From Haliotis cracherodii (taxonomy: Eukaryota), in the NCBI RefSeq assembly GCF_022045235.1, contig NW_027266343.1, positions 51,488,134 to 51,552,133 on the forward strand: 64,000 nucleotides of DNA, read 5' to 3'. Below the pieces are notes generated by a model, which saw only the letters and a program-made list of their open reading frames with translations, ran no database searches and was not told where the DNA came from. Below are positions 5,802 to 50,382 of the stretch, piece after piece (position 1 is the first letter of the stretch; the number at the start of each line of letters is the position of its first letter). Both the position numbers and the translations under genes were made by a program.

Positions 5802-5880
5802 CATGAAGACATTCAGCTGTCACCACGAAGGAAATGCATGATATGACTATGGATAATCGACGACACGTCATATAGCAAAT

Positions 5881-8669: not shown

Positions 8670-8930
8670 TGTACACATTAGAGACAATATTGATGTCCGA
8701 TGCAATTCCTTATTTTGACTTGAAACATATGTTCCAGTGTTTTTTAGATGAACATATGACTTGCTTTGGCATGTGTTTGTGAAATGTGCCACCGGTGGGG
8801 CAGGGTAGTCTCATCTCTTGGTTCACACCTGGTATCATCACTATTTGATAGGGATTAATAAACACATGTTCAAGATATAGTGGGAATCGTACAATGGACT
8901 CTACTTTAAATAGCGATTTTTTATGATGAT
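8670..8930 (+). repeat. R5 interspersed repeat copy
   Basis: 4570-4720 is its reverse complement. No TIRs or tRNA head were found. Confidence 0.5.
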
Positions 8931-8989
8931 GAAAAGGGTATTGTGGCTTTTATTTGAACGAGGTTTCGATGTCCCTAGTTCTATTCCTT

Positions 8990-11300: not shown

Positions 11301-11794
11301 TAGTTTCCATCTCATCAATAATAATTTACTTTTCAGTCAAAGGCAAACTGCAACATATGAGCGTTGGGTCGTTAATGCGAACGGCCGCTAGGAATGTATT
11401 TGTCGAGAGTTAGTCCAGCCATGGGAATGAAAGAATATTATTATTATGTTATATTATGTTAATATAAGGTTTCATCTCTCATGCCAAACATACGCTTCAA
11501 ATTTCAGTAACTCCCAAAAACAGACATTGTTATATAAGTTTTCAAACCATGTACGATGTATGGTCTTTGTTTCTAACATGAGGTGAAATTGGGTTTAACG
11601 TCACGTCCAAGATTATTGCAATCATTCTGAGACGTGCATGCACGTGTGTGTGTGGCTGCTTGTACTAGTCCGGACTGATGCCGATTTATAGTTCTAGCCC
11701 ACTGAGATGCCAGTTTAATATGAATTGCCCACTCAGACACAGTATTATGACTCCGAGCCATCCAGTCCTTGTTTTAGCCCCTTAATGCCGAACC

Positions 11795-11895
11795 CCAGAC
11801 AGGGTAACAACAAGTACCATCTTTTAACGTCTTTTGGTGTGCTGCGGCCGGGGATCGAACCCCGGACCTTCCGCTCTCCGGGTGGACGCACTACC
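11795..11895 (-). mobile_element. SINE family C tRNA-like head only
   Basis: rc = aatggtagtgcgtccacccggagagcggaaggtccggggttcgatccccggccgcagcacacca, with a perfect T-arm CGGGG-TTCGATC-CCCCG. Confidence 0.55.
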
Positions 11896-12479
11896 ATTGT
11901 TAACTACGTGTATTTTACAGGTTTCTTTCTGCATTAGAGTGTGCGACAACGGTGTGGGGTCTTGTAAATACATTTCAAGTGTAACATAAGCACTTGATAA
12001 ACTAATTGATCAATCAGCTGAAAGCTGCAGAGGACTGATATTCACATTCTGTAGGATTAATATCGTTCACAAACCTGCACGTTCTGTCAACGTAGGTATG
12101 GGGAAAAAATCAGGTCGATCGAAAAATTATTAATGTAAACATTCCAATTTCAACACTATCTTTTATCTCCTCTCGCGGCTTGTCATAATTCATTTTTGGA
12201 GAGTTTTTTTAAGATAACTTGTCAACGGGTTTTAATTATAACATTTTACGTAGTTTATTTATATTGATAGCGACAGAAAATGAGTTCGTTTTTTAACTTT
12301 GAATTAATAAAAATGCTTTTTATTTTATATTAGTTATATTACAATCCTTTGGAGTCGGAGGATTCGTAAACCAAGATTTCATAGAGTCTCATAGATGTAT
12401 TTGAGTCACTAGTGAGAATGGCCATCTTGTTGATGATGCATGCGGGGCAGCCTACATTCGGTCGACACACCGAAACCAT

Positions 12480-13700
12480 GCGTGAATGAATGATCATGAT
12501 TGGTTGAATGGATAGTTGCGATTGTGTGGATGAATTTTCCTGGATGTGTTGATGAATGTTCGTAAGTGGGTGGATATTCATGGTGAAGTGGATGGATGTT
12601 CGGGGTAATGTTGATGGATGTTCGTGGTGAAGTGGATGGATGTTCGTGGTGAAGTGAATGGATGTTCGTGGTGAAGTGGATGGATGTTCGTGGTGAAGTG
12701 GATGGATGTTCGTGGTAAGGTGGATAAATGTTCGTGGTGAAGTGGATTGATGTTCGTGGTGAAGTGGATGGATGTTCGTGGTAAGGTTGATGGATGTTCG
12801 TGGTAAAGTGGATGGATGTTCGTGGTGAAGTGGATGGATGTTCGTGGTGAAGTGGATAGATGTTCGTGGTGAAGTGGGTGCATGTTCTTGATGAAGTGGA
12901 TGGATGATCGTGGTAAGGTGGATTAATGTTCGTGGTGAAGTGGATGGATGTTCGTGGTGAAGTGGATGGATGTTCGTGGTGAAGTGGATGGATGTTCGTG
13001 GTAAGGTGGATGGATTTTCGTGGTAAAGTGGATGGATGTTCGTGGTGAAGTGGGTGCATGTTCTTGATGAATTGGATGGATGTTCGTGGTAAGGTGGATT
13101 AATGTTCGTGGTGAAGTGGATGAATGTTCGTGGTGAAGTGGATGGATGTTCGTGGTGAAGTGGATGAATGTTCCTGGTGAAGTGGATGAATGTTCCTGGT
13201 GAAGTGGATGAATGTTCCTGGTGAAGTGGATGGATGTTCGTGGTGAAGTGGATGAATGTTCGTGGTTAAGTGGATGGATGTTCGTGGTGAAGTAGATGGA
13301 TGTTCCTGGTGAAGTGGATGAATGTTCATGGTGAAGTGGATGAATGTTCGTGGTGAAGTGGATGGATGTTCGTGGTGAAGTGGATGTATGTTCGTGGTAA
13401 GGTGGATTGATGTTCGTGGTGAAGTGGATGGATGTTCGTGGTAAGGTGGATGGATGTTCGTGGTAAAGTGGATGAATGTTCGTGGTGAAGTGGGTGCATG
13501 TTCTTGATGAAGTGGATGGATGTTCTTGGTAAGGTGGATTAATGTTCGTGGTGAAGTGGATGGATGTTCGAGGTAAAGTGGATGAATGCTCATGGTGAAG
13601 TGGGTGCATGTTCCTGATGAAGTGGGTGGATGTTTGTGGTTATCTTGATGAATGTTCCTGGTGAAGTAGATGGATGTTCGTGGTGAAGTGGATGAATGTT
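12480..13700. repeat. 22-bp tandem repeat (gtggatggatgttcgtggtgaa), about 50 units
   Basis: Direct reading. A 66-bp (3-unit) frame periodicity creates the His/Pro-rich pseudo-ORFs 12409-13609. Confidence 0.9.
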
Positions 13701-14063
13701 CATGATCAGGAGGGGATGAGCTTTGGGCTAAATAGATGCTTATTATGGATGATTATTTATGGTTAGACGGATGAACGTGCGGGATCTGTATATAAAATGC
13801 GTTGGACGGCCAAAAAAAACCCCAATATTGATTTGGCTTTGTGGGGGATTGAGAGAGTATGTAAAACAATTTTACGATTCCGGCTATATCAGGAGCATGT
13901 GTTTATGAATCACTATCAAAAAGTGATAATAAAATATAACACGGGAACATGTGACACAAGTCAAAATAGGGAATTGCATCGTGCATGATTTTTTGTCACT
14001 GATATATCATATTTTTTGCCTAAATGTCTTATCCCCAAATTACACACGGGTGTTATATATGAG

Positions 14064-14228
14064 TGAGGGAGTGAGTATGGTTTAACGTCGCTGTTAGCAA
14101 TAATCTAGCAATATCACGGCGGGGGAAACCAGAAATGGGCTTCACACATTGTACCCATGTCGGGAATCGAACCCGGGTCTTCGGCGTGACGAGAGAACGC
14201 TTTAACCACTAGGCTACCCGACCTCCCC
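14064..14228 (-). mobile_element. SINE family B, full length
   Basis: TSD tgttatatatgag at 14051-14063 and 14229-14241. Confidence 0.85.
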
Positions 14229-14996
14229 TGTTATATATGAGGAAGTAAACGTAAGCTGACATTTGCTTTCTTTTCTGACAAACTGTTCTAAACCTTTGAA
14301 GATAGCGTTGTACAAAGTTGAAAAATTAAATGTTGTAACAAAATTAAACTTGGTTTTTTTCTGAGATTGCAAACATTTAAGGGAGTCATATGCGTTTTCT
14401 CAAATACTAGTACTCTGTGAATATAAGACCAACTCCTTCCTTGATTGTATTAAGGATTAAGATTATTCTTTGAGACAGGGATTTGGTGAAAAATTTGTTC
14501 ACTGATAAATCATGTTTTGATTATCATTTCAGACGTGGCGCTGAATATGTGAGAAATATGTCATCCACAAAATAGAGATGAAAACGACAGGCGAAATTGT
14601 CCTCCAAAAGAAAACTTCCGTCTGTCTTTTTTTTATTGTGTTTTATGCTATTTCCGTTTTTCAAATTTAATGTTTGTCAGGCATTTGTGATTAAGTATGC
14701 CATATATTATTAAACTCAGCAAAGTTGCCATGTAGACCACATACTTTTTACCAGGTCCTCGCGAAAAGAAAGCGTACCCTGTCCCACCGGTGGCACCCGT
14801 CACAAACACACACAAAGGCAAATCAATTGAACAAGTCATGACTTCATACCTCTTCTAAAATTACATGCGTTATGTCCTTGCTGTAATGAAATATCTGTAT
14901 AGAGAAAGCTTCAAGGAGTCAATTATAAAAGGCAAATAAAGTGAATATTCAATACATTTTTTTCTTAAAAAGCAAATCGAACATGAACTCGATCAC

Positions 14997-15204
14997 TCAG
15001 CAATATTGAAGCTATATGACTGCGGGCTGTATTTAATCGAGTCTGGACCAGACAAGATAGTGATTGACACCATAAGCCTCAATTCACGCAATTTGGATCG
15101 ATGAGTACCCGGTCCCGTTAGCCGCCTATTACGACAAGCAAAGTCACCTTTTACAGCAAGCATCGGTTGCTGTAGACCTATTCTACCCCGGACCTTCACG
15201 GGTC
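14997..15204 (-). mobile_element. SINE family C, diverged
   Basis: Body homology to ctcagcaatattgaagctatatgac...ctaccccggaccttcacgggtc. Confidence 0.65.
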
Positions 15205-16861
15205 TTGCATTTTATAACCCTTATCAAACATCTTTTGAGCATCAGTCGTATGATGCTCTTCACTTTAGGTGCGGCCCTGGGTGTCTGACAACGGACGGAG
15301 TCAGGGATCATTTGGTACATGTACACTCAATACTTATTTGATCTTCGCTACATGTAGACGCTGGTGTCCACTCCAAAACAACGCGATGGTGTGAATGAGT
15401 TGCAATATATATGTGGATTGTTTCATGTCGATAGTTCACGCACTTGCAGTCAGTTGAAGTTGCGTGAAGTGATACAGTGAGGATTAAACGCTTTCGATAG
15501 TGTTCTGTGTACTGTAATGTTTGACGTTGGAAGGCAACATGGCACTAGTGTAAAGTCATTCCGGCTCAAGTAACAAACATACACGAGGAACACATGAACT
15601 ATGAACTTCTATAATGAACAATAAACACGGCTATATGTCATTAACTGTGAAAAAAATGACTCAGCTCTTAAACCAGATGAATTGTTTGATAGGCATTACT
15701 TAGAAGTTGCCGTACGACAAAGTAGACACAAGTTATGGATAACAACTTCTTTAATACTGTAAAGGCAACGTTTCGGTATAGATCCTTATACAGTTGTCAA
15801 GCAAGACTGAATGAGGAACATTGTACAGAATATATTTAGTAGGTGGAGGATAAACAGTAGCAATAATTTCATACATGAGTGGGAAAACATGAGAAAGTAA
15901 GGAAAACAGAAGAATAATACTGTCACAACATGATGGACAGAGAAGACATAGGTAGAAGCCAATGGGATATGACTCCAGTTAAACAGGATAAGTTTGTAGA
16001 GGTGTAGTGATTATTGCTTGATGAGTTCATAGTAGGCGGATGGGATGAAATAGCCTTGATCTCTGTTGATTGATGGCTTGTGGCGGCAAATGTGGACTGT
16101 TTCTGTTAGTTTTCTTTTAGTGAAACCAGATGTTTTTTTTATAATAGGGGGAACTGAAGAGCTAAAGACATATGGCACTATGGCGGACAAGCTACCATTA
16201 GTCTTCACATGTGAGGTTAGTTTACGTGAAGCTGCTCTATTTCTACGCGCAAAAAGGTTATATTTGAGTTACCTACTACAATAAGAAACATGTTAATGCT
16301 GCCCCTAAAGTTTTCTTTAAGCTATTGGATTGTCGGGTTACTCCGATTCTTGTGTACGCATCTGGAATTTGAGGGGTCAAGAGATTTGAGAGTATGGAGA
16401 AAACCTGCTTACTTTGTACTTACTTACTTGTTCGTACTTACTCGCTTGTGTGGTATTCGTGTATAATATGACCAATGCAGGAAGACTGCCTCCCAAATAA
16501 AGCGCACGTGTTAATTTATTTTTACACAAAAACATAATACAAATTGGGCTTCAAATAATAGATACCTTCTATTTTCTCTATTTTGTTTGGCTGTCAAACA
16601 AACGGAGATAAAACATACTTAATCATTATTGTTAAAGCTATCGTGTCATTTGATTGTCTGGATTTTTTACAGGGCCCCGGGGCATGGCAGGAGTACCGCT
16701 GTGCAACAGTCAACAAACAAACAAACAAACACTTACTTATTAATGCACACTGAGTGAAGGACGCTCCCAGTACAGCAGGACATCCATTCAGTAATCCTTT
16801 CACACATTCCCACTTTTACTTTGCCTTTTACACCTAAAAGAATCTGTTTCTACGGATGATC

Positions 16862-17143
16862 GGGGGCACGGGTGGCCCAGTCGTCTAAGGCGCCGCGATT
16901 CGCTGTTCAGAGTTGCGTCCCTTGGGCACGCCAGAAACCTTTGATTGTGGGTTCGAATCCCGATTCGCCCCAATTATGTTTCTAGGTTTGTCAGCACCAT
17001 ACCCTTGCTCGTGGGTTTCACCGAAGTGGTAAACGTCTTAGACCTGCATCACTTCGAGCTTTCCTCCCACATTACGCTGACACGCCGTGATATAACTGGA
17101 ATAATGTTAAAAACGGCGTTAAACCCAACTCACTCACTCACTC
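16862..17143 (+). mobile_element. SINE family A, full length
   Basis: Same consensus as the 3565 copy. TSD ctacggatgat flanks both ends. Confidence 0.85.
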
Positions 17144-17807
17144 TACGGATGATCGAGACTAGTTATTCTCTGGCCTTAACGTTCTTTATCTATTATGTTT
17201 AATTAAAATTGAATATTTAACCAAAGAACCGTATACGTCTTAACTGAATTAAAGATGTTACAGCTTCGAAACATTTTAGTGAGGTTTAGCGGGGTTTTGA
17301 GAAATAATGAAGGTGTTTGGCCAAGATCGATGTATGCGTGAGAATCAGTCCTTGATGGGATCGGGGTAAAGAGGATGGATATCAGTTTTTACTTGTATGC
17401 GCTGCTTTGGGTGCTATAGAATTTAATATTTACCAGTGGACTATGACCTTCATACTGAATAAAGCATTGATTGATTGAATTATTGATCGATTGATTCAAA
17501 GTCTGTCTGCACGTGCTGACACGAATAGTAGTCTTTAAAAAAAAATATAATATTCTAGCCATGGGATACCAAGAATGTGCTTGATTTGAAAAGGAAAACA
17601 AACGCTCATTTAAAAGGGGATTTGAGGAAATGGTCAAAACAATAATGAAGGATGAAAATATGAACAAAACAAACGTAACATTTATCCCCTCGCACGATTT
17701 AAATAAAAAATTCATTTGATTTTCTGCAAACAAAGCCGACTACAGGCAAGAATGGTTGGTCCACCTCGCAAAAAGCAAATACTTGACGAAATGTTGGTGC
17801 CATCACT

Positions 17808-18070
17808 TTGTTTGTTTGTTTATTTGCCGCACTCAGCAATATTCCAGCTATATGACGGCGGTCTGTAAATAATCGAGTCCGGACCAGACAATCCAGTGAA
17901 TAATATCATGAACATCGATCCATGCAATTGGGATACGATGACATGCATCAACCAAGTCAGCAAGCCTGACCACCCGATCCCGTTAGTCGCCTCTTACGAC
18001 ATGCATAGTCGCCTTTTACGGCACGCATTGGCTGCTGAAGACCTATTCTACCCCGGATCTTCACGGGTGG
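17808..18070 (-). mobile_element. SINE family C
   Basis: (gtttgttt) tail, then the body consensus. Confidence 0.75.
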
Positions 18071-18484
18071 GCCATCACTTGTGGGAGGGGGGATGGAAAG
18101 TAGTCGAAACTTTAGTAAGGGCTGACTTAATTCAGTGCATATATTATTATATTTCCCTGTATTCCAAACACCCTTGGCTACACAATTTCTCAGTGGAATT
18201 TCCTCCTACAAAATCATATTTCCCTCTCCCTTCGTCAAATTCTTATTTTCACTCCTTTTTACGGTAGAGTTTGTTCTGATTCTCTTCAGATATACATTTA
18301 TTAGTTATAGTTGTTTTTTATTCAGTAATTACTTGTTTTGCATTTGGAGTAAGTGACACATAGAAGTGACACCAAGCAACAAAGGAACTTGATATGAATC
18401 CTTACTTTAATATGTTCGAGATTTGTCCCACACGTCGTCAAAACCCTTTCCAAGATCACAAGAAATCTCTAGTTTTTCCAGTGT

Positions 18485-19140
18485 ATGATTCCGACAAGAT
18501 CATAAACACGTGTCCATGAATCACTATCCAATATTACACTATCATAAGCTTGTGTCCATGAATCACTATCCGATATTACACTATCATAAACATGTGTCCA
18601 TGAATCCCTATCCGATATTACACTATCATAAACATGTGTCCATGAATCACTATCCGATGTTACACTATCATAAGCATGTGTCCATGAATCACTATCCGAT
18701 ATTACACTATCATAAGCATGTGTCCATGAATCACTATCCGATATTACACTATCATAAGCATGGTTCCATGAATCACTATCCGATATTACACTATCATAAA
18801 CATGTGTCCATGAATCACTATCCGATATTACACTATCATAAACATGTGTCCATGAATAACTATCCGATATTACACTATCATAAGCATGGTTCCATGAATC
18901 ACTATCCGATATTACACTATCATAAACATGTGTCCATGAATCACTTTCCGATATTACACTATCATAAGCATGGTTCCATGAATCACTATCCGATATTACA
19001 CTATCATAAGCATGGTTCCATGAATCACTATCCGATATTACACTATCATAAACATATGTCCATGAATCACTATCCGATATTACACTATCATAAACATGTG
19101 TCCATGAATCACTATCCGATATTACACTATCCGAAACTCC
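18485..19140. repeat. 42-bp tandem repeat (gtccatgaatcactatccgatattacactatcataaacatgt), about 15 units
   Basis: Direct reading. The unit is a multiple of 3, so both strands give long artefactual ORFs (18469-19242 and 18510-19166). Confidence 0.9.
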
Positions 19141-19383
19141 GAAACGACAGCAGCTTTTTATCCTAGTTTCCTTTCTATGAAAGGGTCTTGTACCGATGTA
19201 GAAAACAGTACAGGAATAACCGTACAAAAAGCGGAGTGGCAATTATATACGTTCACAGAGATCTGGAAGTTCCGACGTGAACGAAAGTAAAACAACAGCT
19301 TCTTTAATTTAATTAGCTCAGTTATCAAGTGTTATCAAAGTTGCATCAAAAGAGAAAAAGGTATCACATTTTGTAATACATTG

Positions 19384-19478
19384 GAGTTGTGTTGCCACTC
19401 ACTCACTCACTCACACACTCACTCAGGCACGCACTCACACACAGACACTCACCCACTCACTCACTCACTCACTCACTC
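19384..19478. repeat. Complex (CACT)n/(CA)n microsatellite
   Basis: Direct reading; resembles an expanded SINE tail. Confidence 0.7.
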
Positions 19479-20398: not shown

Positions 20399-21333
20399 TG
20401 AGTTTCTTTTTATTCTAATGCCATCGTGGAAAGTGTGAGTTCATTTTCGTGTTTTTCTACCTGTAAAAATTTGTGAACTAAGCTCATGTCAAATTGTCAA
20501 GTGTAGTCTTCTTCATTGTGTTTTCATTTTCATTGGCAGTTATCGATGTCATCATCGTTCACAAAGGTAAACCTGTCTGTATTATGTCCGGTATTTTGGA
20601 TTCGGGTGGTCGTTAAATTCATCAAACAGCAAGTCCTTTAACACAGACGCAAACCCGGGCTTGGTGGTGATGATCTTGCCACATTCTTGGTGCACTAGAA
20701 ACAGTTTCTGGCAACATCGCAATATGAATCTTGTAACATCAATCTGGCCATATGCCGTTTTGACAACAAAGACATTAAATGTGTTCAGAGGTTTAATTAT
20801 ACGAATAACTATTCATGTCAGTCAGACCTCCGTCCGCTTTAACGAGGTCATTTACATTGACAGGTGTCAAATGGCCAGCCATGTTTGTTTACAAACTCAG
20901 ACGTAGTTTTGGTTTTAAGTGTAAAATGAAGATCATTTAAAACAAATGAAATAAAATAATGTGAAATCATGTTGTTGATAAGAAACTATATTTATTGCCT
21001 TTAAAACACTTGAATCAGTGAGATTGAAGCACGCAAAACATCTGAATGAAAGGCTTGGATTTGTGAATGAATGGGATTGGAAAAAATAGTCCCGTAGTCC
21101 AATGAAAACTGATCATTGTTCAACTGACCAATCAGCTTCGAGAATCACTAATTGCACACTGTGCAAATATCAAAAAAGATATTACACTGCATATTGAAGC
21201 CCATATGGTTTATAAACCTCAAATTGGTCCCAATCAACAAGAAATGATGATGTATACATGCGCGTCACACATTGGATGACGAGGCATTTGTCTATCTTAA
21301 AAGGTTCATTATACACAATATATTGTATGACAG

Positions 21334-21598
21334 GGGGCACGGGTGGCCAAGTCGTCTAAAGCACCGCGATTCGTTGTGCAGAGTTGCGTCCCTTGGGCAC
21401 GCCAGAAATCTATGATTGTGGGTTCGAATCCCGGTTCGCCCTAATTATGTTTCTAGGTTTGTCAGCATCATACCGTGCTCGTGGGTTTCACCGAAGTGGT
21501 AAACGTCCGAGACCTGAATCACATCGGGCTTTCCTCCCACATTAAGCTGACACGCCGTGGTATAACTGTAATACTGTTAAAAGCGGCGTTAAACCAAG

Positions 21599-21600
<2 letters not shown>
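21334..21600 (+). mobile_element. SINE family A with a (CA)30 tail expansion (21601-21660)
   Basis: Same consensus. TSD attgtatgaca at 21321-21331 and 21662-21672. The tail is replaced by a (CA)n microsatellite. Confidence 0.8.
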
Positions 21601-21663
<63 letters not shown>

Positions 21664-21834
21664 TGTATGACAATGGACAGCTTAAACGTCAGATCATACA
21701 TATGTGCACTAAGAGTTATCATTCACCAAATGAAGCAATATCGACAAAATTAAATTAACGTCACAAATAAGAACGTTCTTTCAACGTGATGTACATTGTA
21801 ACAAATGTTAAATTTGTGATAACACTTTCTTATT

Positions 21835-28636: not shown

Positions 28637-28890
28637 CCTTTGACACAGATATCGCTGCGATATTTCCACTGTATGACGTTGTAGCATGTCCCGTGCCTAT
28701 CGCTCCGCCAAGTAGTCCGCAAAGACCTTCCACCAATATGCCTCTGTTGACAGCGTGATCAGGCGGTGGGTCGATTTGACATGCTTTCGCGGTGGCAAAA
28801 TAGTCCCCCACAGATTCAATCATGGACGCGCAAAAGGCAGACAGGAATCCAACAAAAACTGCTGGACTAAATAATGGTAGTCCAAACTGA
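28637..28890 (-). CDS. SLC23A-like: SLC23-family transporter, exon 8 (GQFGLPLFSPAVFVGFLSAFCASMIESVGDYFATAKACQIDPPPDHAVNRGILVEGLCGLLGGAIGTGHATTSYSGNIAAISVSK)
   Basis: Acceptor ctattgcag| and donor CAAAG|gttagt. The span is 254 bp, phase 1 to 0. It carries the conserved SLC23 signature around IESIGDYYACARL...PPPIHAINRGI...[21 protein letters not shown]. Confidence 0.9.
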
Positions 28891-28929
28891 CCTGCAATAG
28901 AACACAGAAGTTGAAGGGTTAAAGATGTT

Positions 28930-29050
28930 GACGAGGATTTATAAGAATGAGGCACCAGGCAGAGTGAGTTCGAATCCTCGATGGGTCTCAACCCCAAAAA
29001 GTACGAGAATCCGTACTTACAAAGAAAGTGTTATCCTAAATATAACACGG
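28930..29050 (+). mobile_element. SINE family D fragment in an SLC23 intron
   Basis: gaggcaccaggcagagtgagttcgaatcctcgatgggtctcaaccccaaaaagtacgagaatccgtac. Confidence 0.55.
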
Positions 29051-29184
29051 GTTACATGTGTTCACTCTCTCAATGGCATTGTGTGTTCACAGCTTTCCGC
29101 CATGGGAGCCGTGCCCATTTACACTTGTCAGAGGGGTACACAAAGTACGTGATCTAGACTAGTTGTCGGACTTTCATTTTCTGT

Positions 29185-29350
29185 TGAAGCCTCGGTGGCT
29201 GGGTGGGTTAGATAGCTGACCTTGTGTGCTGGCGATTAGGTGCCCCACTCTGGTAGTGTGGGTTCGAATCCCGGATGGGATCATCCCCTAAAACTACTAG
29301 AATCTGTACTTCACTGAGAAAGTGTTATCCCAAACATAATATTTGTTGTA
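29185..29350 (+). mobile_element. SINE family D, most complete copy
   Basis: ggctgggtgggttagatagctgacc...gggttcgaatcccggatgggatcatcccctaaaactactagaatctgtacttcactgagaaagtgttatcccaaacataatatttgtt. Confidence 0.6.
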
Positions 29351-29607
29351 ATTTAATGGTAACGTCGCAACAAATGCCTACATTGAAAATGTGCCGGTTT
29401 CTTATCTTTACGACGATGCAAACTGTATGGGAATTGTAAATCTAAATTGTGTACATATGCCATTCGTAGGTAGTTTTCTTCCATTAAATAAAGGTCGCCT
29501 AGATATAGCTGGTATCGTGTGTAACCTGTATTAAAATGCAACAACAACGAAAAGATTCTATATATTCTGTTATACAATGTTTGGTAGACAAGGCTTCACC
29601 TGGATAC

Positions 29608-29891
29608 TGGGGGCACGGGTGGCCCAGTCGTCTAAGGCGCTGCGGATCGCTGTGCAGAGTTGCGCCCCTTGGACACGCAAGAAAACCGTGGGTTCGAATC
29701 CAGGTTCGCCCCGATTATGTTTCTAGGTTTGTCAGCACCATACCCGTGCTCGTGGGTTTCGCCGAAGTGGTAAACGTCTGAGACCTGCGTCACTTCGGGC
29801 TTTCCTCCCACATTAAGCTGACATGTCGCGATATAACTGTAATATTGTTAAAAGCGGCGTTAAACCCAACTCACTCACTCACTCACTCACT
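29608..29891 (+). mobile_element. SINE family A inserted at the exon-7 splice donor of the SLC23-like gene
   Basis: Full-length copy. The 11-bp TSD cacctggatac at 29597-29607 and 29892-29902 contains the exon-7 end (minus strand GTATCCAG|gtg). Confidence 0.85.
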
Positions 29892-29894
29892 CAC

Positions 29895-30051
29895 CTGGAT
29901 ACGGGAAGTAGAACCAGGGCGTGCGCTCTATCAGCAACATCTTCACGTCCGTCCTTGCCTTGTAGCGGATGTTATCGGGGTCGTTTGGGAAGACGTCGGT
30001 GATGGTGAGGATGGCGGAGATAGCCCACATCACCAGGATGCTCAACAGAAC
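29895..30051 (-). CDS. SLC23A-like: SLC23-family transporter, exon 7 (VLLSILVMWAISAILTITDVFPNDPDNIRYKARTDVKMLLIERTPWFYFPYP)
   Basis: Acceptor tttgcag|GTTCTG. The donor CCAG|gtgagtgagtgag is supplied by the tail of an inserted SINE-A. The translation aligns to SVCT2 [51 protein letters not shown]. Confidence 0.85.
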
Positions 30052-30135
30052 CTGCAAAGTGTCACACTTTTTTTCAGTCAGGAAGGTAATATGTGTTTAT
30101 ATATGCTGAGAAGTTCTTTCAGAGGCGACTATCAG

Positions 30136-30378
30136 TGGAATCCCATGTATTATCTGTGCAGAGTTGTCTCCCTTTGTGCACGCAGAAACCTATGGCAGTG
30201 GGTTCGAAGCCCGGTTCGCCACGATAATGCTCCTAGGTTTGTCAGCACCGTACCCGTGCTCGTAATCAAAATGGTAAACGTCTGACACCTGCATCGCTTC
30301 GTGTTTTCCTCCCACGCTGTGAAATACTGCCCAAAACGTTAAATCCAACTCACTCACTCACTCACTCACACACACAGA
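30136..30378 (+). mobile_element. SINE family A, 5'-truncated and diverged
   Basis: Homology runs from gtgcagagttg to the (cact)n(ca)n tail. Confidence 0.65.
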
Positions 30379-30904
30379 CTAATGAATAAGTAAGTTTGTG
30401 TTCTGCGGAATAGCCTATAATATGTTTTTTTATACATCGATGGCGTTGACGACTTCTTTTACCCCGAGTATTTGCGCTGCATTTTTTTACCATCTCTTCT
30501 GAACGTCTAGGTTTATTCTCTTGCAGAGTCTTTGGCGATGCTAAGTTTGAACTTTGAGTAATTGAATTGAAATTACACCCATTGCCAACTTGTTTACATG
30601 CGTTTTTATATTTTGGCGTAATTTAAATGTGAAAAATATCAAGTATATTGTTAAAGACACACTTAATTCCGTGATTTAATTAAGACATTTCTTCACAAAA
30701 ATAAGAAGGGGACATTTCTTTTATTTACATTTCCGCGAACACCTGGTCTAACCACTGACTTTCAATTCAAGTATTTTTGTTTCGCTACTTGAGTGGGCCA
30801 TCCGTCTTTGGAACAAAATCAGGTCAACAACAAATAGTTTCAATTGACGATTGTTGCAATTGCTGACGTTTGTTTTGTTTTAGTTTTTTTTATTTGGTTT
30901 TCTT

Positions 30905-34722: not shown

Positions 34723-34804
34723 CTTGAAAACGATCGTGTACAAGCATCAATATTGATATTTACGGTAAGGTGAAAAAACGTTCTACAAAGTACTCAAACA
34801 AGAA

Positions 34805-34988
34805 GTGATGCAGGTCTCAGATGTTTACCACTTCAGTGAAACCCACGAGCACGGGTATGGTGCTGACAAACCTAGAAACATAATGGGGGCGTATCGGGAT
34901 TCGAACCCACAATCATAGGTTTCTGGCGTGCCCAAGGGACGCAACTCTGCACAGCGAATCGCGGCGCCATTGACGACTGGGCCACCCG
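34805..34988 (-). mobile_element. SINE family A, 3'-truncated, minus orientation
   Basis: Reverse complement of the head ggggcacgggtggcccagtcg...gtggtaaacatctgagacc. Confidence 0.75.
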
Positions 34989-35236
34989 TGCCCCCCTTTC
35001 GTAAATAGAAAATCTGAAATGTGTAACCTATAATTGTACGTGTCATTATTTCATAATGTCTTAACCGAAAATGGAAGGGAATAATGCACTTTTTTCTGTA
35101 AATATTAGCTTCCGCGGTTATGCGGGCGTCAAATCAGCTGTTTCAACGTGGTTGTTGTAATTAGAAACCTCAGACTGAAAGATCAGAATCGAATATTTTC
35201 TAAACTCATGGCATGCGTGGAAAGGTAATATGTAAT

Positions 35237-35336
35237 GGGGTCGGTGAGGTAGCCTAGTGGTTGAAGCTATCGGTCGTCACGCCGAAGACCCGGGTTCGGT
35301 TCCCCACATGGGTACAATGTATGAAGCCAATTTCTG

Positions 35337-35371
<35 letters not shown>

Positions 35372-35415
35372 ATATTGCTGGGATATCGCTAAAAGCGGCG
35401 TATAACCATACTCAC
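35237..35415 (+). mobile_element. SINE family B carrying an internal poly-C(30) expansion, about 115 bp from SLC23 exon 3
   Basis: Head ggggtcggtgaggtagcctagtggttgaagc...; the C-run at 35340-35372 replaces the usual cccccgccg. Confidence 0.75.
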
Positions 35416-35529
35416 CATATAAGTAATGTTTTTTAGAAAATATTCGGGTTCAATATGATTTTTTCGAGTATCAAATACTCAATAACACCTGCAATTCCGT
35501 AACTCTTTCCCACTCACTCACTCACTCAC

Positions 35530-38334: not shown

Positions 38335-41276
38335 ATAACCAACTCTCTAATGATGAAGTAAGTCACCAGCTCTCTCCAATGATGAAGTAAGTCACCAACT
38401 CTCTCTAATGATGAAGTAAGTCACCAACTCTCTCTAATGATGAAGTAAGTCACAAACTCTCTCTAATGATGAAGTAAGTCATCCACTCTCTAATGATGAA
38501 GTAAGTCACCAACTCTCTAATGATGAAGTAAGTCACAGCTCTCTCCAATGATGAAGTAAGTCACCAACTCTCTCTAATGATGAAGTAAGTCACCAGCTCT
38601 CTCCAATGATGAAGTAGGTCACCAGCTCTCTCTAATGATGAAGTAAGTCATCCACTCTCTAATGATGAAGTAAGTCACCAACTCTCTAATGATGAAGTAA
38701 GTCATCCACTCTCTAATGATAAAGTAAGTCATCAACTCTCTAATGATGAAGTAGGTCACCAGCGCTCTCCAATGATGAAGTAGGTCACCAGCTCTCTCCA
38801 ATGATGAAGTAGGTCACCAGGTCTCTCTAATGATGAAGTAAATCAACCACTCTCTAATGATGAAGTAAGTCATCAACTCTCTAATGATGAAGCAAGTCAC
38901 CAACTCTCTGTAATGATGAAGTAAGTCACCAACTCTCTCTAATGATGAAGTAAGTCACCAACTCTCTCTAATGATAAAGTAAGTCACCAACTCTCACAAA
39001 TGATAAAGTAAGTCACCAACTCTTTCTTATGATAAAGTAAGTCATCCACTCTCTAATGATGAAGTAAGTCACAACTCTCTAATGATGAAGTAAGTCACCA
39101 ACTCTCTCTAATGATGAAGTAAGTCACCAACTCTCTCCAATGATGAAGTAGGTCACCAGCTCTCTCCAATGATGAAGTAGGTCACCAGCTCTCTCCAATG
39201 ATGAAGTAAGTCAACCACTCTCTAATGATGAAGTAAGTCACCAACTCTCTAATGATGAAGTAAGTCACCAACTCTCTTTAATGATGAAGTAAGTCACCAA
39301 CTCTCTCTAATGATGAAGTAAGTCACCAACTCTCTCTAATGATAAAGTAAGTCACCAACTCTCACAAATGATAAAGTAAGTCACCAACTCTTTCTTATGA
39401 TAAAGTAAATCACCAACACTCTCTAATGATAAAGTAAGTCACCAACTCTCTAATGATGAAGTAAGTCACCAACTCTCTTTAATGATGAAGTAAGTCACCA
39501 ACTCTCTCTAATGAAACAGTAAATAACCAACTCCCTCTTATGATAAAGTAAATAACCAACTCTCTCTAATGAAACAGTAAATAACCAACTCCCACTTATG
39601 ATGAAGTAAGTCACCAACTCTCTCTAATGATGAAGTAAGTCACAAACTCTCTCTAATGATGAAGTAAGTCATCCACTCTCTAATGATGAAGTAAGTCACC
39701 AACTCTCTAATGATGAAGTAAGTCACAGCTCTCTCCAATGATGAAGTAAGTCACCAACTCTCTCTAATGATGAAGTAAGTCACCAGCTCTCTCCAATGAT
39801 GAAGTAGGTCACCAGCTCTCTCTAATGATGAAGTAAGTCATCCACTCTCTAATGATGAAGTAAGTCACCAACTCTCTAATGATGAAGTAAGTCATCCACT
39901 CTCTAATGATAAAGTAAGTCATCAACTCTCTAATGATGAAGTAGGTCACCAGCTCTCTCCAATGATGAAGTAGGTCACCAGCTCTCTCCAATGATGAAGT
40001 AGGTCACCAGCTCTCTCTAATGATGAAGTAAGTCAACCACTCTCTAATGATGAAGTAAGTCACCAACTCTCTAATGATGAAGTAAGTCACCAACTCTCTT
40101 TAATGATGAAGTAAGTCACCAACTCTCTCTAATGATGAAGTAAGTCACCAACTCTCTCTAATGATAAAGTAAGTCACCAACTCTCACAAATGATAAAGTA
40201 AGTCACCAACTCTTTCTTATGATAAAGTAAGTCATCCAGTCTCTAATGATGAAGTAAGTCACCAACTCTCTAATGATGAAGTAAGTCACCAACTCTCTCT
40301 AATGATGAAGTAAGTCACCAACTCTCTCCAATGATGAAGTAGGTCACCAGCTCTCTCCAATGATGAAGTAGGTCACCAGCTCTCTCCAATGATGAAGTAA
40401 GTCAACCACTCTCTAATGATGAAGTAAGTCACCAACTCTCTAATGATGAAGTAAGTCACCAACTCTCTTTAATGATGAAGTAAGTCATCAACTCTCTCTA
40501 ATGATGAAGTAAGTCACCAACTCTCTCTAATGATAAAGTAAGTCACCAACTCTCACAAATGATAAAGTAAGTCACCAACTCTTTCTTATGATAAAGTAAG
40601 TCACCATCTCTCTCCAATGATGAAGTAAGTCACAACTCTCCAATGATGAAGTAAGTCACCAACTCTCTCTAATGATGAAGTAAGTCACCAGCTCTCTCCA
40701 ATGTTGAAGTAGGTCACCAACTCTCTCTAATGATGAAGTAAGTCATCCAGTCTCTAATGATGAAGTAAGTCACCAACTCTCTAATGATGAAGTAAGTCAT
40801 CCACTCTCTAATGATAAAGTAAGTCATCAACTCTCGAACGATGAAGTAAGTCACCAGCTCTCTCCAATGATTAAGTAAGTCACAACTCTCTAATGATGAA
40901 GTAAGTCACCAGCTCTCTCCAATGATGAAGTAGGTCACCAGCTCTCTCTAATGATGAAGTAAGTCATCCACTCTCTAATGATGAAGTAAGTCACCAACTT
41001 TCTAATGATGAAGTAAGTCATCCACTCTCTAATGATGAAGTAAATAACCAACTCCCTCTTATGAAAAATTAAATAACAAACTCTCTCTCATGATGAAGTA
41101 AATTACCAACTCTCTCCTTAGATATAGTAAGTAGCAAACTCTCTCTTATGATAAAGTAAAAAACCAACTCTCTCTAACGAAACAGTAAACAACCAAATCT
41201 TTCTTATGAAAAAAATTAAATAACCAACTTTTTCTCATGAAAAAGTAAATAACCAACTCTCTCTCTCTTATGATAA
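38335..41276. repeat. 29/30-bp satellite (about 100 units, aatgatgaagtaagtcaccaactctctct) with a 1190-bp higher-order repeat
   Basis: 38411 onward equals 39601 onward at an exact 1190-bp offset. ORFs 38619-38801 and 39809-39991 are identical artefacts. There is an inner ~368-bp sub-period (ctcacaaatgataaag at 38993/39361 and 40183/40551). The array continues briefly after the SINE at 41553-41575. Confidence 0.9.
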
Positions 41277-41552
41277 AAGGGGGGGGGGGGGGGCACGGGT
41301 GGCCCAGTCGTCTAAGGCGCCGCGATTCGCGTCCCTTGGGCTCGCCAGAAACCTATGATTGTGGGTTCGAATCCCGGTTCGCCCCAATTATGTTTCTAGG
41401 TTTGTCAGCACCATACCCGTGCTCGTGGGTTTCACCGAAGTGGTAAACGTCTGAGACCTGCATCACTTCGGGCTTTCCTCCCACATTAAGCTGACACGCC
41501 GCGATATAACTGGAATACTGTTAAAAGCGGCGTTAAACCCAACTCACTCACT
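41277..41552 (+). mobile_element. SINE family A inserted into the 30-bp satellite
   Basis: A G-run precedes the head. The satellite unit cttatgataaag is duplicated on both sides as a TSD (41265-41276 and 41553-41564). Confidence 0.85.
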
Positions 41553-43957: not shown

Positions 43958-45064
43958 CGGACGGAACCGATTTTCTATCTCCCCCGCCAACTCCGTTGGG
44001 GCGGGGGATAATGATCGTGGCACATTAATTTTATCGGTGTACGATAAAAAGCGGGAAATGTTACTATTTTTCAACACAGAAAAAATTCTCGGAGAACACT
44101 TAGACGTGTCTTTGTTAAAACCGGTTTAATAATTGCAGTTAAATTTACACCATCAAATAGGAAATTTAATATTCTCCACATCTGCGTAATTTTATAGCCA
44201 GAGGTATATCCAGTGCCGCGTGAGCGCAATTCTCGCACAACCTTCACTTTTCCGATCTTAGGAAAATGTGCGTCAGCAAAAAAAACCTCGGCATCCATAG
44301 AGAATACTACACCCATTCTCGTTAGATACAATTTTTATGAAACGAGTGGACTTCCTATGGTATCTGACCGAGCGAATGAGTGTGGCATTTTATTTATTAC
44401 CAACGTTAAATATATATTTAGGTGTAAATACATAACAACTTTCGTTCGTTGGCAGAACAAACTGAAACCGGTTGCAAAATCTGGTTGCGCATGAATATTG
44501 ATATATGCCCAAATATGGGCATTGTTGACATTTCTGTGCATACGTATTAACAACATGTTCCTGCTGTTGTGATTGCAAACGTAACAGCATCGACGCTCAA
44601 GATCCTTTTGGAACAGTTTCTTCAACGTATGGTAATGCAAGCGCCATGTTGTAAGTACGCAGGACACCTATAAGAAAATTTGAAAAGACACATTTGCGCC
44701 GCGCTTTGAATATCGGACCAACAGTCGGTCACTCGCACTGCCGGGGTATTTAAAATGGCTCGGTTTCCTTGATCTATCAGCTAAATTTATATCCGGTCCG
44801 TACCATTTTGAAAGAGGGAATTCAGGGTGTTCGCCAAAGACATTCATCTTAACTGTACCACCTTGTACTGAAGTCGTGAAAATCAACAAACTTAAGTCTG
44901 CTTGCATGTCAGTGACAGCTTCGAACGAAGGGCAAGGTCAACACCGGAATAAGAAAAGACAACCGTGATCTACTTACAGCGTTTTGTGCTAGAGACAGGG
45001 AATGTTATTGTTCACATTTGGGATATTTTGGTCCACATAGCCAGAAATCAGACACACGTAAAAG

Positions 45065-46681
45065 TGGAAAATTGTATGCTATATTTGTAGATTTTTCGAA
45101 AGCATTCGATTCAGTCTGTAGAGATAAGTTATGGTATCTATTTAATTCACATGGTGTCAGTAATAAAATGGGTAAATTGTTATGTGGTATTTATAAGGAA
45201 GTTAAATCATGTGTTAAACAAAACGGCATGTATTCAGATTCTTTTATATGTCATACTGGTGTACGCCAAGGATGTGTATTAAGCCCTTTTTGTTCTGTTT
45301 TTTTTTATATTATTAATGAGCTTGCAGCCCAAATCAAAAGAAATTATGATGATGGTATACAATTACATCCTGAACTTATAAAAATATTTATGTTACTATT
45401 TGCAGATGATATAATCATGTTCTCGAGTACTGTAAAAGGTTTACAAACTTTGATAAATCAGCTAGAATTGTACTGTGATACGTGGAAACTTAATGTTAAT
45501 CTAGATAAGACAAATATTGTTGTATTTAGCAAGAGAAATACGCCGTCAAAAATTGAAAAGTGGTACTTTCGGGGACAATTACTCCAAACTGAAACCTCAT
45601 ATAAATATCTTGGTGTAATATTTTCAAGTAAATTATCATGGAACCGACATATATGTAATGCAGCAATACAAGCTAAAAAGATGCTTTTGGGCATTTTACA
45701 AACGTTTGAACATTTTAGCGAGTGTGCTTATAAATCTTTCTTCAAAATCTTTGACACAAAAATAACTCCTATTCTTTCCTATGGCTCGGAAATATGGGGT
45801 TTTGCAGAGGCTAAAGAAATTGAATCCGTACATTTATACGCATGCAACAGATTTCTTGGTGTTAAACATAGTACGTCTAACGTAATGGTTTATGGTGAAT
45901 GTGGTCGCATGCCCTTGTATATATATTACTTCTTAAAAATCATAAGATACTGGTTAAAATTACTAAAAATGCCGGTAGGTAGATTGCCAAAATAATGTTA
46001 TAATATGATGCTATTGTATGAAAAGAATGGAGATCAAAATTGGGCATACAATGTTAAATGTCTACTGTATAAATGTGGGTATTGTTACATCTGGGAAAAC
46101 CAATGTTTCTTAGAGAATCATGCCATGTTCATATCGAAAATAAGGCAGACGCTTTTTGACATGTACTTTCAAACATGGAGATCTACTGTAGATGTTTCTA
46201 ACAAATGCGAATATTATAGATATTTTAAAATGCAAATATGCACAGAAAAATATTTAACTGATGTAAATATAAGAAAATGCAGAATATCATTAACACAATT
46301 TAGATGCAGCTCACACAGGTTAATGGTTGAAGGTGGCAGGCACAACAAAATACCCAAATGTTTAAGATTATGTAAACAATGTTCTTTAAATGATGTCGAA
46401 GATGGCTTTCATTTTCTACTTGTATGTTGTAAAAATGATAATTTAAGGAAAAAATATATTGAACAGAAATACTATGTACATCCAAATAAATACATGTTTA
46501 TCTCTTTAATTTCACATGTGAGCAAAACGGCTACACAAAATCTCTCTCTCTCTCTTTATATATCATGCCATGTTATTAAGATATGAATCCTTGTAACATT
46601 CCTAACCGCTTCCACATTGTCATGTATTCTGTACTATTGGCCGGTGGCCTTACAGTTATATATGAATAAACTGATTGATTG
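45065..46681 (+). mobile_element. LINE fragment (5'-truncated RT with FADD motif plus C-terminal Cys/His domain) nested in the YR-element composite
   Basis: ORF 45018-45995 contains YAIFVDFSKAFDSV...VRQGCVLSP...LLFADDIIMF. ORF 46005-46586 is the C-terminal domain. The flanks are contiguous in the copy at 63.06-63.10 kb, so this is an insertion, with the short direct repeat gacacac at both junctions. Confidence 0.75.
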
Positions 46682-47617
46682 ACACACTTCTACGGAGTTT
46701 TCGAAAGATTTGTATCAGAAATGTTCTTTGTTCACTCAGTGATCTGGTCGTGCAGTCGTGAACAAACAACTCCCGAAACAGTGCCACAAAATACGCTTCG
46801 AAGGGGACACTGATGATACAACCGGATCATCCCAAGTTAGTCTAGATATCTGCCCAGATAGCTTAAACTTACTTCATTTCACCAAGCTTATCCTTTTACG
46901 TTAAATCAAATTGACAGTTGCGAAGGTGGTCGGGTGCGTCACGCTCATGGGGACCCTCGATCTATTGATCGTACTTTGTAAATTTTATGGATATAGCTCG
47001 ATTATATAATGTCTGTAAAAGCTCTATGCATAACTTATACAGAACGCAAACCGAATTTGATGCGTGTGACTATCTTGTTTGGTTTAATAAAGTGTTTGTA
47101 AATATCTCACGCTCTCATGAGAATGCTTCAGTTCTGCGTGCCTTGTTGTTGCAAAATGAATGACGTCTCGCGATTTTGTATGAATGACAAAAGTAGTACC
47201 GGTGTGACAGAGGTCACGGTTATCCAATCAAAACGAATTAAACAAGGTCAACCTTGTACGATACATGTGTGACCTACGGATTTAGTATCTTACCACTTGT
47301 ATCTTCACCACGTTGGTAATAAATATAGAATACTACACTCATTCTCGTTAGATACCATAGAAAGTTCACGAGTTTCGTAAAAATAGTATCTTACGAGAAC
47401 GAGTGTAGTATTTTATTTATTACCCACATTTTTATGGACGAAAATAGCGTTTTCGTTACTTTATACGCCAAACGCAAACTGGCTCGAACTCTGGTTGCGC
47501 ATGAATAGTAAAATGCCCAAATATAGACATGCTAACTTATTTACGCATTGGTAAATAGTTCCTGTTGTTTGTGTATGAATAATTGACAATACAGCTCATG
47601 CCAGGAAATAACATGAT

Positions 47618-48600
47618 TCATGATTTGTACAGTGCAACTGGACATCGTGGGTCGTTGGTAGACCATGCACGGGGAGGCGCGTCACGGACATTACGTGTGT
47701 CATTGCCTGTGCGTGTCTTTGTTTGACGTTCATTGTACTCAATGAACTCTCTACCATCAGAGTCGAGTTTTAGAACTACATCTCCCCACCTCATCAAGTG
47801 ATGAGGTTTTACACTTCGGAGACCAAAGTGTCTCGTGTTATTCCACCATAGTGTGTTGAGAATGGATTCTGGGTTATTAGGACCCAATTCGTTTGCATCA
47901 AACATCATGTTGATTTCATCATTGGACAGACTTTCGGCCCTATTTGGTAAGTTTCCTCGCCCTTCTCTTTTTAGAACTTTTTGTTTGGTTGACAGGACTT
48001 CGCGAAGTTTTGAAAACTCACGATCCTGCAACAAGGACTTGTCATATCCCCTTGATTTTAGAAATCTGTCAATACTTGATAGCTTTGATGTAAAAGAGCT
48101 TGGTTCATAGTCCTGGCCGTTAGATTTCTTTATCAAGATGAAAAAGCTACACAATACATCGCATAATTCATTTGGGGGTATGGTTTCAACCGGCCTAGAA
48201 TCAGCGTTGGCGTTCATGAATTTCTCATAATACTTATGTCATATTGGGTTTTTCTCCAGGTGTTTTGATTTCGATTTTGATGTATGAAATTGTCAATGTT
48301 TGAACAGTCATACTGATACACATTGTCACCTGGTATATCATCAAAAAAGTCATCCTTAAATAGTTCCTCATAGACACATTCTGGAACAGTGTCAAATGGG
48401 TTTAAAGCGGATATAGGGGCCGACGATACAGTCTTAGGAACAACAGTAAGTCTATGCCGTCCTACTTGCCTCATTTCACCATTCAGAGTTTTGATATTGT
48501 AGGCATTGAATGTTCCAAGTGGTTGAACAATAGAAAGCACCCGTCCTCTAACGTCTCCGTCAATTTTGACACAATCGTTAACACGAATAGTGGTAGCCAT
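47618..48600 (-). CDS. Tyrosine recombinase-like ORF (Crypton/DUF3504-type N-terminal domain + Box I Arg + beta-hairpin Lys; C-terminal catalytic half missing; one frameshift at 48214-48217)
   Basis: ORFs 48214-48600 and 47618-48217 carry ...GQDYEPSSFTSKLSSIDRFLKSRGYD...LPNRAESLSNDEINMMF...LWWNNTRHFGLRSVKPHHLMRWGDV...YNERQTKTRTG. The pattern matches the SAM-like plus core-catalytic N-terminal half of Crypton/DIRS YRs and the DUF3504 domain, from memory. No HxxR...Y follows before the hairpin. Confidence 0.45.
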
Positions 48601-50382
48601 CTTTCGATCTGCGCTAATATTTTAGCAAACGATCGTGCGGGAGATGCTGGTTAAAAAAACAAAACACCATTTCGTGTCATGACATGTATTAAAATTGGTT
48701 GTGATTGTTTGTAAATGTCTCTCGTTTTCACGAGAATCCTACAGTTCTGCTTCGTAGTAGTAAAGAGTTGTGAAAGCGAATGACGTCTCGTGATCGTTTA
48801 TGAATGAAAAAAGTAGTTCCGGTCCAATCAATAAAACGAGGTCAACCTTGTACGACACACGTGTGACGTACGGATTTAGTATCTTACCACCTGTATCTTC
48901 ACCACGTGGGTAATAAAATAGAGGATTCATCATGAGTGTTTTTTAATATGGGAAATATCAACCGAGTCTTAGTTAATCGGTATTTGCCGAGCCTTTAGCC
49001 AATCAACGAATTAAATGTTCATGCATGGTGATGGGACCGGGCTACTAGTATATGACGTCATGCTGTGCCCGGGATGCACGAGGAGTGACGTAATGCATGT
49101 TTCTTACACACCTGTGGGTGAGAAACCCATTTGAGATAACTGGTATCAAATATATGTTTCAGATCGAATTCCAGGCCCGTGATTGGCTACTCCATGGTGA
49201 TGACCTGAGGTCAGATGATGACGGACTACTTTCCTGAGTGTAAGACATTCAAGTTTCACGTGCTTCAGTCGAATGTTCACCTACGTCTGTATTGAACCAC
49301 AGGACCGTGTGATTTATAATAAAAATAAACTCATCCTCGTCTGCGAGTTTGATTGTTATTATCATCAGTTACATTACCTGTTGTTATGTCAACGTTAACA
49401 TTTTTTCGGGTGTTAACTTCCTGGATGCCACAGCGACACGTGTGTTTCCTCTTCAACACTCACTTCGAAGTCGAATAAAATTCAAAATACATCACGCAAA
49501 CTAATACACAGCACAGTTTTGAATTCCCCCTTCTGTTTATCATTTACTGTCATTTTAGGCAAAGCACATTTACTAAAAGTGACTTCTAAAAATTAGGTAC
49601 ATCGTAAATCTCGTCAAATCACAATTCACGGCGTTATTAACTGTGTGTTTAGAAAATCTAAATATCGGATATTTACTCGAAAAAATAAAGTAGAAAAATA
49701 GCATATTAGTGATGACGGGCATCAAATCACTAATGATAATTCTTCAACGTCGCTGATAAGCCTAGAATCGTTTAGAGTGTTTGGGAAAATACGCATACAC
49801 GAACGCCGAAGTGTACGTTCCGCCATATTGGATTGTGTTTACAAAATGCCGGTTATGAGACGCCTATTCGATCAAGTATATTTCAAACTCAGCTGCTATA
49901 CATGCATCCCTGAATTCCTCATACATTTGAGAAACAAATGACAAATGGTCTTTGCCACCAATGCAAATTATCTAGATGAAATCATACGAAATAAATTAGG
50001 TATGGAAACGAAAACTGTTCTCGGAAAACTGTAAATAAAGCAAAATTCAGATTTTAACACTGTGTTGAGGTACTTTCGGCTAATTTTTGCATACATTGGC
50101 TCGATCGCGCGTTTGAGAATAATCATGGGAAGAGCATCGTTGCACTAAGCTAGTATGGAATTACACATGTATACATTACAATGATGTGGTAAATTCAACA
50201 GAAGCCGTAAAAGTTTCCGTCCTGTGTGACGCCATGACTGACGCTAAATCACGCAGAACGATGACGGTAGTTATCTGCATTTCTGACTAATTCTCTTTGT
50301 TACATTCGAAAACATGGTAAACAAATAACAGTACGCAGATTGTCAGAATGTTTCTGATTACTTACGTGACACATTTATGTAT

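Follow-up and report, generated by a model that had tools for sequence, protein, structure and literature searches.

An antisense SINE at the exon 7 splice donor of an SLC23-like gene in abalones

Introduction

Mobile elements are normally depleted beside splice sites, because insertions there break splicing. In the canine merle allele, a SINEC_Cf element lies in antisense orientation at the boundary of PMEL intron 10 and exon 11, where a 15-bp duplication copies the splice acceptor and the SINE tail serves as a polypyrimidine tract, with splicing tuned by its length (PMC7349775). Antisense Alu elements similarly supply splice sites and polypyrimidine tracts in the course of exonization (PMC7349775), and disease-causing Alu and L1 insertions close to splice sites have been described, among others in NF1 (PMC3219598). 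SINEs with tandem-repeat tails are known from molluscs, including the MESC elements of Bathymodiolus with (CACT)n and of Haliotis with (CACCT)n tails (Matetovici et al. 2016, PMC4758252), and for repeat-tailed SINEs and LINEs, such as RTE-related retroposons, microhomology between tail and target has been published (PMC6007223).

Here we describe an antisense SINE at the 5' splice site of a constitutive exon, found in a 64-kb stretch of DNA from the black abalone, Haliotis cracherodii (the window). Its nearest analogue is the merle insertion, of which it appears, by comparison, to be a harmless mirror image at the 5' splice site. In both cases an antisense SINE lies exactly at an exon-intron boundary, the duplication copies the splice site, and the antisense tail contributes to the splicing signal and acts like a microsatellite of variable length. 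The merle insertion involves a 3' splice site and a poly(T) tract, whereas the abalone insertion involves a 5' splice site and a tetranucleotide tail; furthermore, merle is a recent polymorphic allele with mis-splicing and a phenotype, whereas the abalone insertion is fixed in two species with an apparently unchanged coding outcome. The Alu and L1 cases share with it an antisense retroposon that provides or disturbs splice signals and a target-site duplication left by target-primed reverse transcription, but they result in new exons or exon skipping, whereas in abalone the donor of a constitutive exon would have been regenerated upon insertion. With the mollusc SINEs the element has in common a head, a body, a LINE-like 3' domain, a short tandem-repeat tail and the host group. 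As in RTE-related retroposons, the duplication opens with bases that match the element's 3' microsatellite (1-4 nt in abalone); in contrast to other repeat-tailed retroposons, the abalone family has a tail complement, GTGA, that coincides with the splice-donor consensus. No new kind of element or mechanism is required, and the locus is a new instance of a known phenomenon with an unusual twist.

Results and discussion

The SLC23-like gene and its seventh coding exon

The SINE resides in an SLC23-like (vitamin-C/nucleobase transporter) gene on the minus strand of the window. A tblastn search with a human SVCT2 sequence gave the first lead to its identity, followed by a database search. Although a 53-aa exon peptide returned no matches as a query, a 459-aa concatenated model retrieved 757 homologues at E <= 0.001, with Haliotis proteins as top matches. 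PF00860 (Xan_ur_permease) was present in all 120 of these homologues that were listed, and nearly all listed homologues with a source name were named SLC23 or Xan_ur_permease. We assign the predicted product to the SLC23 / nucleobase-ascorbate transporters. Exact spliced mapping of XP_071090060.1, an H. cracherodii RefSeq protein annotated as SLC23 member 2-like from a Gnomon model, yielded 11 coding exons at 100% identity, all bounded by canonical GT-AG.

Coding exon 7 (29895..30051, minus strand) spans 157 nt in this exact protein mapping, ends in phase 1 and translates as VLLSIL...TPWFYFPYP(G). When both strands of 29200-30400 were read, its minus-strand end was ...TTCCCGTATCCAG, followed by GTGAGTGAGTGAGT... 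at the start of intron 7 (28892..29894, minus strand, 1003 nt). Coding exon 8 (28638..28891, minus strand) follows the acceptor ttgcag|GTCAGTTTGGA, with its first bases completing the codon split as G|GT; the resulting peptide, PYPGQFGLP, spans a junction that is identical in five Haliotis proteins (H. cracherodii, H. rufescens, H. rubra and two H. asinina homologues).

Copy number varies among the loci. One SLC23 copy is present in the window and one in the corresponding H. rufescens locus (L001). The H. rubra locus (L002, QXJH01000680.1), a RefSeq gene range labelled 'LOW QUALITY PROTEIN', contains two SLC23 paralogues in tandem, whose exon sets lie at ~2001-19444 and ~44732-56881, and a tandem pair is likewise present in H. 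asinina (L003 and L004).

The element and its family

The element at exon 7 is ~285 bp long (29609-29894) and antisense to the gene. Its body (29609..29868, plus strand) is 92.6% identical to the window consensus of its family, from which it differs by a private 6-bp deletion, and its 3' tail (29869..29894, plus strand) consists of 26 nt of (CTCA)n, which read (GTGA)6GT on the gene strand. On the plus strand the SINE starts with GGGGGCACGGGTGGCCCAG and ends with GTTAAACCCAA(CTCA)n, and one extra T at 29608 separates the distal copy of the duplication from its 5' end.

BLAST of a 284-bp unit identified five full-length copies of this family (SINE-A) in the window, including the exon 7 copy and others at 3564, 16862, 21333 and 41289, and three partial copies at 25687, 34802 and 30154. 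These seven further full or partial copies in the 64-kb window compare with six in the 21-kb H. rufescens locus, and copies from the window and the H. rufescens loci are 75-99% identical to the consensus. Every copy aligned with its flanks starts at GGGGGCAC, and all end in (CTCA)n with the exception of one converted to (CA)n. Each intact-ended copy has its own target-site duplication; in total, nine copies representing eight independent insertions are flanked by unrelated duplications of 11-14 bp. The 5'-truncated copy at 25687 also has its own duplication, and the copy at 34802-34995 lacks the 3' part. These features support a dispersed, non-autonomous SINE-like retroposon. By eye, the SINE head contains an A-box-like motif (TGGCCCAGTCG) and an exact B-box (GGTTCGAATCC), but ARAGORN matched no tRNA in the head and neither did Rfam, for which a copy of 98.6% identity was included, and a tRNA derivation is thus unproven. 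The last ~60 nt, a 3' domain of the form AAAGCGGYRT...(CTCA)n, are common to several SINE families of the window. The loci of H. rubra and H. asinina, 103 kb in total, yielded no copy of the family, which seems to be restricted to, or expanded in, North Pacific abalones.

Several copies have diverged in structure. The tail of the copy at 21333-21690 now forms a (CA)n run of ~30 units next to an intact duplication (ATTGTATGACA), a change that represents microsatellite conversion. The copy at 41289 is preceded by ~15 G (41270-41295) instead of the usual five, either by extra 5' G addition or by expansion of the G run. Intron 6 contains an older, 5'-truncated SINE-A-like copy (30154-30369; 72-76% identity) that is antisense to the gene and has its truncated end ~100 nt upstream of the exon 7 acceptor. 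A SINE of another family in intron 3 (35226-35415) has a head resembling GGTAGCCTAGTGG...GGGTTCGGTTCCCC, a ~30-nt poly(C) run at 35341-35371 and the shared 3' domain with AAAGCGGCGTATAACC. Tail runs of at least 12 nt are strongly strand-biased in the window, where 13 are (CTCA)n on the plus strand and three are (TGAG)n.

Target-site duplication at the exon-intron junction

The initial annotation had placed a SINE at the exon 7 donor with a duplicated exon/intron junction, which is confirmed here for coding exon 7 of the SLC23 gene. Its 11-bp duplication at 29597-29607 and 29892-29902 was also recovered: the 11-mer CACCTGGATAC starts at 29597 and 29892 and nowhere else in the window. It is part of a 12-nt repeat, TCACCTGGATAC, located at 29596-29607 and 29891-29902. 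With up to one mismatch allowed, this 12-mer has only these two matches in 64 kb, compared with 0.27 expected from shuffled sequences. The exon-proximal copy (29891..29902, plus strand) reads GTATCCAG|GTGA on the gene strand and thus comprises the last 8 nt of exon 7, as had been proposed, followed by GTGA. The distal copy (29596..29607, plus strand) contains the same exon-like end, GTATCCAG, finishing at 29600.

Positions 29891-29894 belong to both the duplication and the tail, a 4-nt microhomology (TCAC; GTGA in the gene's orientation) that makes the boundary between them ambiguous. The start of the element consequently falls 0-4 nt into the intron, which replaces the earlier placement within 2 bp of the splice site. 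The old donor GTGAAG is located where it had been annotated, at 29594..29599 (minus strand), with the original intron sequence following it. A decoy copy of the junction is indeed present in intron 7, but the two junctions are 295 nt and not 290 bp apart, and the exon-like end lies at 29600 with its GT at 29599-29598 and not at 29605/29604.

Comparison among Haliotis species

The loci of related species, which had been suggested as a check, were compared using the window alone for H. cracherodii and homologous loci from H. rufescens, H. rubra and H. asinina. The site is empty in H. rubra (L002, exon end 9740), which reads GTATCCAG|GTGAAGCCTT with one duplication copy and no SINE, and in two genes of H. 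asinina, which read GTATCCAG|GTAAAGCCCT, again with one copy and no SINE. These empty sites have the form CCAG|GT(G/A)AAGCC, which corresponds to a fusion of the window's exon side with its decoy side and equals the predicted pre-insertion sequence; the decoy GTGAAG and its context match the empty site of H. rubra, GTGAAGCCTT, exactly. For H. rubra, the exon 7 copy ending at L002:9740 is the informative one; that ending at 54005 precedes a different, short intron, and exact mapping of the 'LOW QUALITY' protein P0002 was not achieved. In H. rufescens (L001 10560-11226), the same antisense SINE occupies the same position with GTATCCAGGTGA flanking it on both sides. Across intron 7, the sequences of H. 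cracherodii and H. rufescens are 95.3% identical, and the exon 7 SINEs of the two species share eight differences from the consensus and have seven private differences each, with six tail units in H. cracherodii and five in H. rufescens. On this evidence, the two introns are considered orthologous.

Since the site is filled in H. rufescens and empty in H. rubra and H. asinina, the insertion is derived within Haliotis, although shared with H. rufescens, and predates the split between H. cracherodii and H. rufescens. The initial annotation had named an ancestral SINE as the outcome that would count against its reading, and in the sense intended this is not what the loci indicate. An ancestral element that was precisely deleted from the H. 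rubra and H. asinina lineages would have required the precise loss of the element and one repeat copy in three separate genes, three being the number of non-North-Pacific loci compared, and no copy of the family was detected in the 103 kb examined from those species. A merely coincidental flanking repeat is difficult to reconcile with an exact 12-nt repeat that abuts both ends of the element, given that ~0.27 such matches would be expected across the window even with one mismatch allowed. We regard deletion or coincidence as exceedingly improbable. The derived insertion is, on this comparison, an old event fixed in at least two species and not a recent one, and provides a presence/absence marker that sets H. 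cracherodii and H. rufescens together and apart from H. rubra and H. asinina. The H. rufescens copy additionally contains a ~350-bp SINE of another family (L001 10649-11011), which is nested in the exon 7 SINE, has its own duplication (TAATGTGGGAGGA), was found in H. rufescens only and represents a species-specific marker.

The current donor and the origin of its bases

The current 5' splice donor GTGAGT (29889..29894, minus strand) directly follows ...TATCCAG and includes the first antisense tail unit. The initial annotation held that the insertion improved the donor consensus, and this is upheld: the new donor CAG|GTGAGT at 29895 matches CAG|GTRAGT at 9/9 positions, compared with 7/9 for the old donor, now decoy, CAG|GTGAAG at 29600 and 6/9 for the tandem donor TGA|GTGAGT at +4. 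On a crude abalone matrix built from 35 non-independent sites, the three score 10.8, 6.7 and -0.9 bits, respectively. The position 29895|29894 is a predicted U2-type 5' splice site that begins with GT, matches the consensus and maintains the reading frame, which is continuous only when 29895 is joined to 28891. Judging from the RefSeq models, the reading frame and the conserved PYPGQFG junction, we infer that the 29895 donor is used exclusively. A protein search that used the exon 7-8 peptide as query recovered distant fragments but no abalone transcript. The gene appears to be intact despite the SINE insertion.

The claim that the SINE tail supplied the GTGAGT donor is certain only in part. 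Because GTGA is common to target and tail, donor positions +5 and +6, where AG became GT, are the only ones that are certainly SINE-derived, and the GTGA at +1 to +4 probably stems from the target itself, where it acted as primer.

Alternatively, the (GTGA)n run could be a native intronic microsatellite that the SINE merely adjoins, in which case the tail would not have contributed to the donor. SINE-less (GTGA)n runs do occur at donors, as at exon 3 of the same gene (GATG|(GTGA)4, compared with GTAAGAGAGTGAT in the outgroups) and in H. asinina L007, where a native GTGA-rich tract follows the donor. Yet all three empty exon 7 sites read GT(G/A)AAGCC without a GTGA run, the decoy copy retains GTGAAGCC, and the run passes without a break into the SINE 3' domain GTTAAACCCAA(CTCA)n, an arrangement shared by all copies but the (CA)n-tailed one, which makes a native origin of the run very improbable.

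The exon 3 donor itself (35511-35529, exon end 35530) reads GATG|(GTGA)4GTGGG in the window, with 5-6 units in H. rufescens, and GTAAGAGAGTGAT in both H. rubra and H. asinina. Tail-only retroposition was considered for this run and rejected, as the intron is only 6-10 nt different in length from the outgroups. In-situ microsatellite growth is more likely, given the small length change and the lack of a SINE body.

Proposed insertion mechanism

Of the explanations considered, we regard with high confidence the following as correct: a LINE-dependent, (CTCA)n-tailed SINE was retrotransposed in antisense into the exon 7/intron 7 junction, rebuilt the donor, was neutral or slightly favourable and became fixed. 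The insertion would have taken place in the common ancestor of H. cracherodii and H. rufescens. As the SINE is in plus orientation, first-strand cDNA would have been primed from the gene-sense strand, which, according to the junction sequence, was probably nicked at GGTGA^AGCC within the old donor GTGAAG. The (UCAC)n tail of the SINE RNA could then have paired with the GTGA 3' end to start reverse transcription, again as suggested by the junction. A second-strand cut 12 nt upstream, 8 nt inside the exon, followed by fill-in, would have duplicated GTATCCAGGTGA. Under this scheme of nicking and tail priming, the exon-proximal GTATCCAG|GTGA would be original DNA, and the distal side would consist of the fill-in copy and the original downstream intron. 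In the filled site, the exon's own end, GTGA and the antisense tail together read CAG|GTGAGTGAGT..., a consensus donor, and the old junction with the remainder of the intron has been displaced 295 nt downstream as a weaker decoy. Because the mRNA and protein would be unchanged (PYPG|QFG), the insertion is expected to have been neutral or slightly favourable and to have become fixed on those terms.

Tail/target microhomology ranges from 1 to 4 nt in nine clean insertions and is largest, at 4 nt, in the exon 7 SINE. Furthermore, target sites in this small sample tend to T|TC(A) in the SINE sense, corresponding to [G/T][G/T]A^A on the nicked strand, a motif that the endonuclease appears to favour.

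Since the duplication copies the junction and the tail complement coincides with the donor consensus, the insertion repairs its own disruption. The locus thereby provides a clean, base-resolved counter-example to the depletion of mobile elements at splice sites.

Decoy, tandem donors and splicing neutrality

The insertion has also left additional putative splice signals. On the gene strand, the GTGA tail run forms a chain of six GYNNGY tandem donors. As in described GYNNGY tandem 5' splice sites (PMC4267661), GTGAGTGAGT offers GTs 4 nt apart; the abalone chain differs from these in that it was made by a mobile-element tail and consists of putative donors. Retention of the 295 nt up to the decoy donor would produce PYPGE followed by a stop two codons past exon 7, use of the tandem GTGA donors likewise results in a premature stop, and SINE-internal cryptic acceptors combined with the decoy donor introduce one in every combination. 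One candidate for a productive decoy isoform, a cryptic exon of 237 nt that starts at an acceptor at 29837 and is in frame, was rejected because it contains a stop.

If the decoy, the tandem GTGA donors or the cryptic acceptors of the SINE were used to an appreciable degree, the insertion would not be neutral for splicing but would generate NMD-targeted isoforms and lower expression. GYNNGY tandem donors, of which there are six here, are a class known for noisy alternative splicing (PMC4267661), the antisense SINE offers a plausible acceptor at 29837|29836, and isoforms that all carry premature stops would be absent from protein annotation. Against this, the +4 donor lacks the exonic CAG context and scores far below the current donor, the decoy is both weaker and distal, and two species have retained the insertion while the reading frame of the gene stayed intact. 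We therefore consider appreciable mis-splicing unlikely, though far less so than a native microsatellite, and favour a neutral or slightly favourable insertion. With a strong proximal donor facing an intact ancestral donor 295 nt away, the locus constitutes a natural test of competition between the two.

Antisense SINEs near other donors

The exon 7 insertion leads to a testable hypothesis, namely that SINEs with repeat tails can be targeted to 5' splice sites and reshape them. Donors were surveyed in the window gene and four H. rufescens SLC23 paralogues (46 introns, 77.9 kb). An antisense SINE lies within 17 nt of the donor in 3 of the 46 (window intron 7, L006 intron 2 and L008 intron 3). 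Across all 46 introns, the shared 3'-domain motif was counted ten times in antisense and twice in sense, and three of the ten antisense copies are located within 60 nt of a donor, compared with 0.36 expected, their actual tail distance being 0-17 nt and their target-site duplication, a possible one in L006, covering the donor. The corresponding probability is P = 0.005 with the exon 7 SINE and ~0.05 without it, in a small sample of paralogous genes in which the exon 7 SINE was pre-selected, and the case for donor targeting from 46 introns is suggestive only. Tentatively, GTGA-type donors might be preferred and tolerated landing sites for antisense abalone SINEs with the shared 3' domain and a (CTCA)n tail, a proposition that we consider possible but doubtful. 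In such targeting, the tail would anneal to GTGA and its complement would rebuild GTGAGT. If true, SINEs could colonise and remodel 5' splice sites genome-wide, escape purging and seed new donors.

The two further donors differ in detail from that of exon 7. In H. rufescens L006 intron 2 (2523-2812), the junction reads CAG|GTGAGTTG; next come a degenerate tail and an antisense SINE-A-like copy, 81% identical to the consensus, which starts 8-17 nt past the donor; GTGAGTTG is possibly repeated at the far end as an 8-nt duplication. The orthologue of L006 in H. asinina (L007, ~1802-1900) lacks a SINE at this place and is the gene with the native GTGA-rich tract mentioned above. In H. rufescens L008 intron 3 (11397-11589), a different antisense SINE of ~165 bp lies between GTGCGTAATATGA and GTGCGTCATACGA. 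These flanks correspond to the first 13 nt of the intron, so that the duplication starts at the exon-intron boundary and duplicates the donor.
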